32,856 nucleotides of DNA from a virus (taxonomy: Duplodnaviria; Heunggongvirae; Uroviricota; Caudoviricetes): the IMG/VR virus record IMGVR_UViG_2526164692_000012; one strand, written 5' to 3'. Under the pieces are notes generated by a model. The model did no database searches, was not told the origin of the DNA, and was given only the letters and a program-made list of their open reading frames with translations. Made by a program: the position numbers and the translations under genes. Of the stretch, positions 9,860-10,589 are shown in pieces; positions within the stretch are counted from its first letter, which is position 1, and each line of letters opens with the position of its first letter.

Positions 9860-10091
9860 GTCAATATTTCCTAATCCGATTTGTTGATACCGAAGCCCTG
9901 ACTGTTCCCGCAGTTGGGGCTTCACTGTTTTGATTTCTTTGCCGCATCAAGCATCACTTCTGAAAACGTGCGCTTGCCACTGAATACTCTTTCTCTTCTC
10001 AATTTTTCGTTCGTGCCAAATGATTCGCCATGAACAAAATTTGGTCTCAAAATGGTAAGCGCAATCTCTTTGACTACTGCATCCAAGCAAA

Positions 10092-10232
10092 TCACACTGT
10101 TACCCCCTCCCTCTTCAGGCTGTCCAGCACCCGTTTAATTACTTCTGCGCTGAATGAGCGACACTCTTCCTTTGCTTTTTCTTCAAGAATTTTTTCTAGC
10201 TTCTCTGGCATACGCAGTGTTTTTACCTTCAT
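10092..10232 (-). CDS. arc: Arc-like ribbon-helix-helix repressor, 46 aa
   Basis: Hand-translated ORF MKVKTLRMPEKLEKILEEKAKEECRSFSAEVIKRVLDSLKREGVTV (below the 60-aa ORF-track cutoff); RHH pattern; located immediately upstream of ant and divergent from mnt. Confidence 0.6.
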   Translation of the reverse strand: MKVKTLRMPEKLEKILEEKAKEECRSFSAEVIKRVLDSLKREGVTV

Positions 10233-10337
10233 TGCATCCTCCGTTGTATGTGGTACGCATACATAGTATTTAGGTACGCATTGATAGTCAATAGATACCT
10301 ACATATCCTGTGGTAAAAAATTATTCAGGATGCGCCG
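10233..10337. promoter_or_regulatory. Divergent arc/ant and mnt promoter-operator region (putative)
   Basis: 105-bp AT-rich intergenic region between divergent arc and mnt; contains direct repeats GGTACGCAT (10252..10260, 10272..10280) and TGTGGTA (10249..10255, 10309..10315) that may be operator half-sites. Confidence 0.45.
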
Positions 10338-10589
10338 ATGTCTGATCGTAAGTACAAAAACCCTCAAGTGAATCTGAGGCTTCCTGTAGAGATAAAGGAA
10401 CGTCTTATTGAACTGGCTGAGGCTAATTCTCGTTCATTAAATGCTGAGATGGTAGCAGCACTTGAGGCATGGACTGAAAAAAATAAACATATTCAAGCAC
10501 TAGATCTTGCAACTATAGCATCGCGGTTGATAGAGCTTGAGCATGAGGTTGAGAAGTTAAAATGTATGCATGGCAACAGTGAAAAATGA
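10338..10589 (+). CDS. mnt: Mnt-like ribbon-helix-helix repressor, 83 aa
   Basis: N-terminus with RLPVEIKERLIELAEANSRSLNAEMVAAL resembles P22 Mnt (same length, RHH followed by coiled coil); divergent from arc-ant. Confidence 0.7.
   Translation: MSDRKYKNPQVNLRLPVEIKERLIELAEANSRSLNAEMVAALEAWTEKNKHIQALDLATIASRLIELEHEVEKLKCMHGNSEK

Follow-up and report, generated by a model that had tools for sequence, protein, structure and literature searches.

A probable sar antisense RNA gene in the immI region of a P22-like prophage of Escherichia coli

Introduction

What does the structured DNA between the arc-like repressor gene and the antirepressor gene ant of a P22-like prophage encode, and on which strand does it act? 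The question is raised by positions 9860 to 10091 of a 32,856-nt stretch of viral DNA (IMG/VR record IMGVR_UViG_2526164692_000012), the whole of which is referred to here as the window. A first-pass annotation, made from the sequence alone, had proposed that a plus-strand hairpin in this interval is the terminator of a sar-like antisense RNA, and had favoured the shorter ant, with its start at 9859. The evidence assembled below leads, with high confidence, to the assignment of positions 9861 to approximately 9927 on the plus strand as the sar gene in the immI region of a P22-like prophage.

The immI region and its host

The window is a P22-like prophage, and 641 nt around sar are 100% identical to genomes of the E. 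coli O104:H4 outbreak. In the RefSeq annotation of these genomes, the minus strand carries genes for an Arc-family protein, for the antirepressor Ant and for the tailspike, and a divergent gene encodes a further, mnt-like member of the Arc family. Our own ORF and domain calls agree with this gene layout and describe a complete immI, comprising mnt, arc, ant and the tailspike gene. The arc-like gene (10092..10232, minus strand) encodes a ribbon-helix-helix repressor of 46 aa that matches PF03869 (Arc, E 3.4e-8) and is an Arc family protein in RefSeq. The mnt-like repressor of 83 aa (10338..10589, plus strand) matches the same Pfam family (E 2.9e-10) and corresponds in length and position to Mnt of P22 and epsilon34. 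The antirepressor gene (8981..9859, minus strand) encodes 292 aa with Bro-N and P22_AR_C domains, as identified with Pfam and PHROG, and corresponds to RefSeq WP_000835342.1, while the ORF and domain calls place the tailspike gene at 8880-6901 on the minus strand.

A promoter scan identified two divergent and overlapping promoter-like sites in the region 10263..10309, namely Pant (TTGACT-17-TACTAT, 10291-10263, minus strand) and Pmnt (TTGATA-17-TATCCT, 10281-10309, plus strand), in an arrangement as in P22 (X01916). The element under study resides in an immI region with mnt, arc, divergent Pmnt and Pant promoters, and ant upstream of the tailspike gene. Two kinds of repeat were also noted in the Pant/Pmnt region, namely a tandem repeat of 21 nt (GGTACGCATACATAGTATTTA / GGTACGCATTGATAGTCAATA; 10252-10293) and an inverted one that spans 10267-10305 and has arms of 18 nt. 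These repeats, which together span 10252-10305, are candidate Arc and Mnt operators, with a sequence unlike that of the P22 operators.

Two further elements were observed elsewhere in the window. Between ant and the tailspike gene, at 8944-8963 on the minus strand, there is a strong terminator-like hairpin (GACCCAGCCTCGGCTGGGTTTTTTTT) that includes a T8 run, and the epsilon34 annotation has a terminator at the same place. Additionally, a tRNA-Arg gene (anticodon CCT) is found at 3298-3372 on the plus strand and may mark the attachment site or an end of the prophage.

With regard to distribution, 649 of 5426 complete E. coli genomes contain sar-like DNA, O157:H7 included; in many O157:H7 strains, DNA resembling sar and its promoter is found with 96% identity over 100 nt. 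None of the 25 matches listed for sar-like E. coli DNA carries an ncRNA annotation, and only CDS features are found there.

A plus-strand hairpin followed by a U-rich tail

The plus-strand sequence at 9892-9923 reads GAAGCCCTGACTGT-TCCC-GCAGTTGGGGCTTC, followed by ACTGTTTTGATTTCTTTG, so that the hairpin GAAGCCC...GGGCTTC with an adjoining T-rich tract, on which the first-pass annotation was built, is present as described. RNAfold and a terminator scan delimit a stem-loop of 14 bp with a 4-nt loop (UCCC) at 9892..9923, referred to below as stem-loop II, and a U-rich tail (ACUGUUUUGAUUUCUUU) at 9924..9940. Folding of 9885-9945 on the plus strand gave -23.4 kcal/mol (z -4.09), a stability reached by none of 200 shuffled sequences. 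When the segment was widened to 9850-9945, the plus strand folded with -30.6 kcal/mol (z -5.66), and a second hairpin was formed at the 5' side. The hairpin region adjoins the complement of the ant start codon (CAT, 9857-9859) and of the ant Shine-Dalgarno (SD) sequence (AGGA, complement of 9869-9872).

The same DNA could in principle act on the other strand, as an attenuator, terminator, processing or stability element in the ant mRNA, whether in Pant or in late-operon transcripts. A hairpin does form on the minus strand, where it follows the stop codon of a small ORF, and it is less stable (-18.4 kcal/mol, z -3.6) because the G-U pairs of the plus strand turn into A-C mismatches. Moreover, a hairpin on the target side is expected with any structured antisense RNA. 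The sequence 3' of the hairpin on the minus strand, GGUAUCAACAAAUCGG, has no U-tract, and the consensus scan reports a terminator-like site at the hairpin on the plus strand only. A minus-strand terminator was rejected on these two grounds, and a minus-strand role of any of these kinds appears highly improbable. The plus-strand reading has a weak point of its own, since four nucleotides (ACUG) separate stem II from the U run, which counts against its interpretation as the sar terminator.

Folding of the full leader (9856-10100) gave no sign of extra structure on the minus strand (z -1.6). The value for the plus strand (z -3.8) takes in the strongly folding sar hairpins.

A full-length match to the sar family

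The plus-strand segment 9861-9926 matches the Rfam family sar (RF00262) with 63.7 bits, against a gathering threshold of 43, over model positions 1-68 of 68. The E-value of this match is 2.3e-12 in a search of 1.9 kb and 4.1e-11 in a search of the whole window, in which sar and a tRNA are the only RNA families above the Rfam threshold. A covariance model of our own (R1) matches 9861-9927 with 95.3 bits. Three other families gave matches below threshold that were taken as chance, namely ctRNA_pGA1 (23.6 bits, gathering threshold 45), mir-921 and snoR66.

The sar antisense RNA is accordingly placed at 9861..9927 on the plus strand, with a start at 9860 or 9861 and an expected 3' end at about 9926-9931. 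Both the fold and the Rfam alignment describe stem-loop I at 9861..9887, in which 9861-9866 pairs with 9882-9887 and closes a 15-nt loop containing the anti-SD sequence UUCCU (9868-9872). The minimum free energy fold, the terminator scan and the covariation described below agree on an RNA of two stem-loops, the second of which forms an intrinsic terminator with the U-tract. The RNA is antisense to the ant leader and lies over the ant SD, with its 5' end beside the ant start codon. The sar gene of the window is a genuine member of a long-known, curated family, and its sequence was already public, though unannotated as RNA.

A predicted promoter inside the 5' end of ant

Within the 5' end of ant, the promoter scan identified GTGAAA-17-TATACT with a TG extension at 9825-9853 on the plus strand, directed away from ant. 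It comprises a -35-like hexamer (GTGAAA, 9825..9830), found in the same columns as that of the epsilon34 Psar, and an extended -10 element (TGC TATACT, 9845..9853) that is antisense to the 5' codons of ant (Ser-Ile-Ala). The start predicted from this promoter is 9860/9861, beside the ant ATG (9859). At the level of its motifs, the element is predicted to be a constitutive-type sigma-70 promoter, Psar, although the weakness of its -35 hexamer counts against it.

The extended -10 sequence TGCTATACT is identical in the window, P22 and epsilon34 in an ungapped alignment. Furthermore, almost all of 95 homologous loci have a -10 of the TGnTAnnnT type at a constant spacing from the ant CAT. It is kept even where the N-terminal residues of Ant differ, for instance in proteins starting with M-H-D-H-S, which have TGCTATGAT, and this argues for selection on the promoter itself. 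The full-length RF00262 match, a promoter aligned with Psar and the correspondence with the columns of the epsilon34 sar together support the proposal that the hairpin is the terminator of a sar-like antisense RNA.

The ant start codon

The position of sar has a direct bearing on where ant begins, as the hairpin would be coding if translation started at GTG 9925 and gave a protein of 314 aa. The reading frame is indeed open from 9925, over 314 codons. However, ATG 9859 stands in the same column as the ant start codons of P22 and epsilon34 (its complement being 9857-9859), is preceded by an AGGA SD (9872-9869) 9 nt upstream, and is the start chosen by RefSeq, whereas no SD is found ahead of 9925. 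Moreover, many homologous loci have in-frame stops that interrupt the extension and lack an alternative start, among them those of the CUS-3 type and of the types L026, L046 and L056. The alignment, the ribosome binding site, the RefSeq start and the stops in homologues together led us to reject the extension, to which we attach a negligible probability. The preference of the first-pass annotation for the shorter ant is in this way borne out, and the recognition of sar settles the ant start codon at 9859.

Comparative evidence and covariation

Homologous loci were collected by a pattern scan of viral contigs with the fixed part only (CCGAAGCCC-N18-GGGCTTC), which yielded about 95 sar loci with many variants after six obvious chance matches had been dropped. 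All 24 distinct 5' segments among them fold into a stem of 5-8 bp that closes a loop with an anti-SD sequence (UUCCU or CUCC).

Two MAFFT alignments (A2 and A3) were discarded, as they set stem I out of register between P22-type and window-type sequences. They were replaced by an alignment of 48 matches to a covariance model derived from six sequences of the window type; as two of the 48 are partial matches to the hairpin on the reverse strand, about 46 homologues remain. In this alignment, 98.4% of the cells are paired overall, and ten pairs show double changes. In stem I, all six pairs show double changes among the homologues, with 98.1% of the cells paired. In stem II, four inner pairs show compensatory changes. 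The search pattern had itself fixed the CC ahead of this stem, its seven outer pairs and the 5' base of pair eight, which are hence uninformative. The covariation score was 0.345, compared with 0.119 ± 0.010 for shuffled alignments (none of 500 reached the observed value) and at most 0.087 for slid registers, and it is to be read as that of an alignment fitted to the model.

A sample independent of the hairpin was obtained by choosing 80 loci only for their possession of an Ant relative at 75-99% identity. All 80 contain sar, with its end 2 nt from the ant ATG, so that sar is invariably linked to this ant family in the sample. The loci chosen in this manner add further variants of the hairpin in which inner pairs are compensated.

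A small ORF between arc and sar

The locus is more than a simple intercistronic region between arc and ant. In an interval of 232 nt, sar takes up just the ant-proximal 67 nt, and a putative coding sequence of 57 codons (ORF57, 9922..10095, minus strand) lies between arc and sar. The GTG of ORF57 overlaps the TGA of arc (GTGTGA), and its own TGA, which overlaps the last 2 nt of the 3' arm of the hairpin, lies in the hairpin base. This overlap is compatible with sar, as the arc stop of P22 and epsilon34 also abuts the 3' end of sar.

The coding status of ORF57 is doubtful. It matches phrog_17642 (E 1e-41) and is annotated as hypothetical in phiv205-1, and no Pfam family was matched. Only ten close clusters were found among 5.8 billion proteins, several of them frameshifted, and a tblastn search against phages returned a single record. 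The copies in phiv205-1 and in the locus L087 differ by just 3-5 nt, and the comparison with a Klebsiella copy revealed four synonymous and seven nonsynonymous codon changes, without a synonymous excess. The single-sequence AlphaFold2 model has low confidence (pLDDT 62, pTM 0.24) and is uninformative on this point.

At the nucleotide level, a stretch of about 52 nt in ORF57 is perfectly kept between the window and the Klebsiella copy (in the region of window positions 10024-10050, plus strand). It contains an imperfect palindrome with 13-nt arms, which reads GTTCATGGCGAAT-C-ATTTGGCACGAAC on the operon (minus) strand. As judged by eye, about 145 nt of the ORF57 segment are missing in L040-type loci, compared with window positions 9941-10087, between short direct repeats (TTGGATGC... 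and TTGATGCGG). In these loci, arc would lie about 33 nt from the hairpin, and a 12-codon in-frame remnant would be present.

A mosaic joint and a possible variable gene slot

Window positions 9844 and 9924 recur as the beginning and the end, respectively, of BLAST matches to other phages and to E. coli genomes. Furthermore, the 95 loci comprise 18 types of ant 5' sequence and 26 types of arc-side sequence in 47 combinations, and one Ant type (at least 75% identity) occurs with 11 different sequences on the far side of the hairpin. These combinations and breakpoints indicate that the sar hairpin doubles as a module joint. In CUS-3, the interval 1526-2007 of the locus, which includes sar, is annotated as 'bsq2; boundary sequence' on the arc-mnt side; no description of sar as a boundary sequence was found in the literature.

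The gene that precedes sar on the operon strand stops either 4-7 nt ahead of the hairpin, in which case it is mostly Arc-like, or at the TGA in TGAAGCCCC. Among the genes that end at this hairpin TGA are those of an Arc-like protein and of ClpX-type C4 zinc-finger proteins, as well as ORF57. In the loci L085, L018, L043 and L004 (CUS-3), it is the gene of a small CxxC...CxxC protein that ends there, and PF06689 (ClpX C4-type zinc finger) is matched by the L085 protein with E 4e-11. The small genes found between arc and sar vary among phages and encode an extra Arc-like ribbon-helix-helix protein, small proteins with ClpX-type C4 zinc fingers, ORF57 and others, many of which terminate at the hairpin TGA.

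These observations could be taken to mean that the sar homologue is kept mainly as a recombination joint between ant and the arc or accessory modules, with an RNA that is silent or dispensable here. The breaks at 9844 and 9924, the 47 combinations, the 11 partners of one Ant type and the CUS-3 annotation would all agree with such a role. The conservation of the -10 element, of the anti-SD loop and of compensatory changes in both stems speaks against it, as it points to selection for an RNA that is expressed and folded, rather than for DNA identity alone. A joint without a working RNA is therefore considered unlikely. The two roles are not mutually exclusive.

A more speculative extension, which we regard as possible but less probable than not by a clear distance, is that the hairpin is the fixed joint of a variable immI slot and that ORF57 is a real fourth component of the region, co-translated with arc, whose 3' end would be affected by sar pairing, while stem-loop II would permit pairing across phages. 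If this were true, the sar of a resident prophage could, by means of the near-invariant stem-loop II, pair with the ant leader of any heterologous P22-like phage that superinfects the cell. The mosaic joint and the variable slot for small genes could guide work on the evolution of immunity regions, and the verdict on sar is unaffected by them.

Proposed mechanism and significance

P22 sar is an RNA of 68/69 nt that pairs with the ant mRNA, blocks its ribosome binding site and reduces the synthesis of the antirepressor; besides Mnt and Arc, it is required if lysogeny is to be properly controlled (PMC12197685, PMC7968456, PMC3134472). It has also been recovered by small-RNA sequencing of a P22 infection (PMC13397905). 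The papers searched offered no evidence that sar is transcribed in E. coli prophages, and none of them mentions RF00262.

By analogy with P22, the sar RNA of the window is probably made in the prophage and would repress the translation of Ant. Psar, antisense within the first ant codons, would initiate 1-2 nt beyond the ant ATG and read away from ant, giving a transcript of about 67-70 nt that ends a few nucleotides past 9923. The loop of stem-loop I would offer the anti-SD sequence UUCCU, and stem-loop II with the U-rich tail would act as the intrinsic terminator. As sar is encoded on the opposite strand, its complementarity to the ant leader is perfect between -2 and about -68, a stretch that takes in the SD AGGA. 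It could then pair with the ant mRNA from Pant, as part of an arc-ORF57-ant operon, block ribosome binding and lower antirepressor synthesis, thereby adding a post-transcriptional layer to the repression of Pant by Mnt and Arc. Control of the antirepressor in these E. coli prophages is very probably three-layered as in P22, through Mnt, Arc and sar.

In P22, Psar is activated by, and dependent on, convergent transcription from Pant. As 165 nt separate arc from sar in the window, any such dependence could differ quantitatively here.

The main value of these results lies in annotation, as the RefSeq annotation of O104:H4 has no ncRNA feature at the sar site.

Comparison with known systems

Other cis-antisense RNAs that mask an RBS or target the mRNA of a phage regulator are IS10 RNA-OUT and lambda OOP. 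The lambda OOP RNA covers the 3' end of cII and works through RNase III. Both OOP and the IS10 RNA-OUT are unrelated to sar in sequence, and neither has an Rfam match in the window. They are likewise small, structured cis-antisense RNAs that lower a regulator post-transcriptionally (PMC7968456, PMC3134472).

The closest known systems are P22, whose sar is the subject of Liao et al. 1987, Wu et al. 1987 and Schaefer & McClure 1997 (as cited in PMC2629481 and PMC12197685), and epsilon34, in which sar is annotated (PMC2629481). The P22 sar (RF00262) is placed alike, in antisense orientation to the ant leader and SD and with a start beside the ant ATG, and the window shares with P22 the -10 element inside ant, the architecture of two stem-loops and the surrounding immI genes (mnt, arc, ant and tailspike). 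Stem-loop II is identical but for one loop nucleotide, whereas all six pairs of stem I are recoded in the window and still pair. The SD/anti-SD combination is AGGA/UCCU in the window and GGAG/CUCC in P22, and the tail of the window is more U-rich than AACUUUAC of P22 and has the better U run. The arc gene of the window encodes a different ribbon-helix-helix protein, of 46 aa compared with 53 aa in P22. The arc CDS of P22 and epsilon34 reaches the sar end or stops 1 nt from it, whereas in the window the arc stop is found at 10092, 165 nt from the 3' end of sar, so that the strict P22-type immI arrangement, in which the arc stop abuts sar and sar fills all of the space between arc and ant, is absent here. 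This separation is a variation in architecture and has no bearing on the definition of the RNA family.

The epsilon34 genome (NC_011976) carries an annotated sar misc_RNA and a Psar described as a "promoter, located by similarity with P22 Psar". Its promoter and RNA align with the window without gaps, the sar misc_RNA columns corresponding to window positions 9861-9928. The 34-nt hairpin core is identical in epsilon34 and the window, while that of P22 differs at one loop base; stem I and the flanking genes of epsilon34 are P22-type, unlike those of the window.
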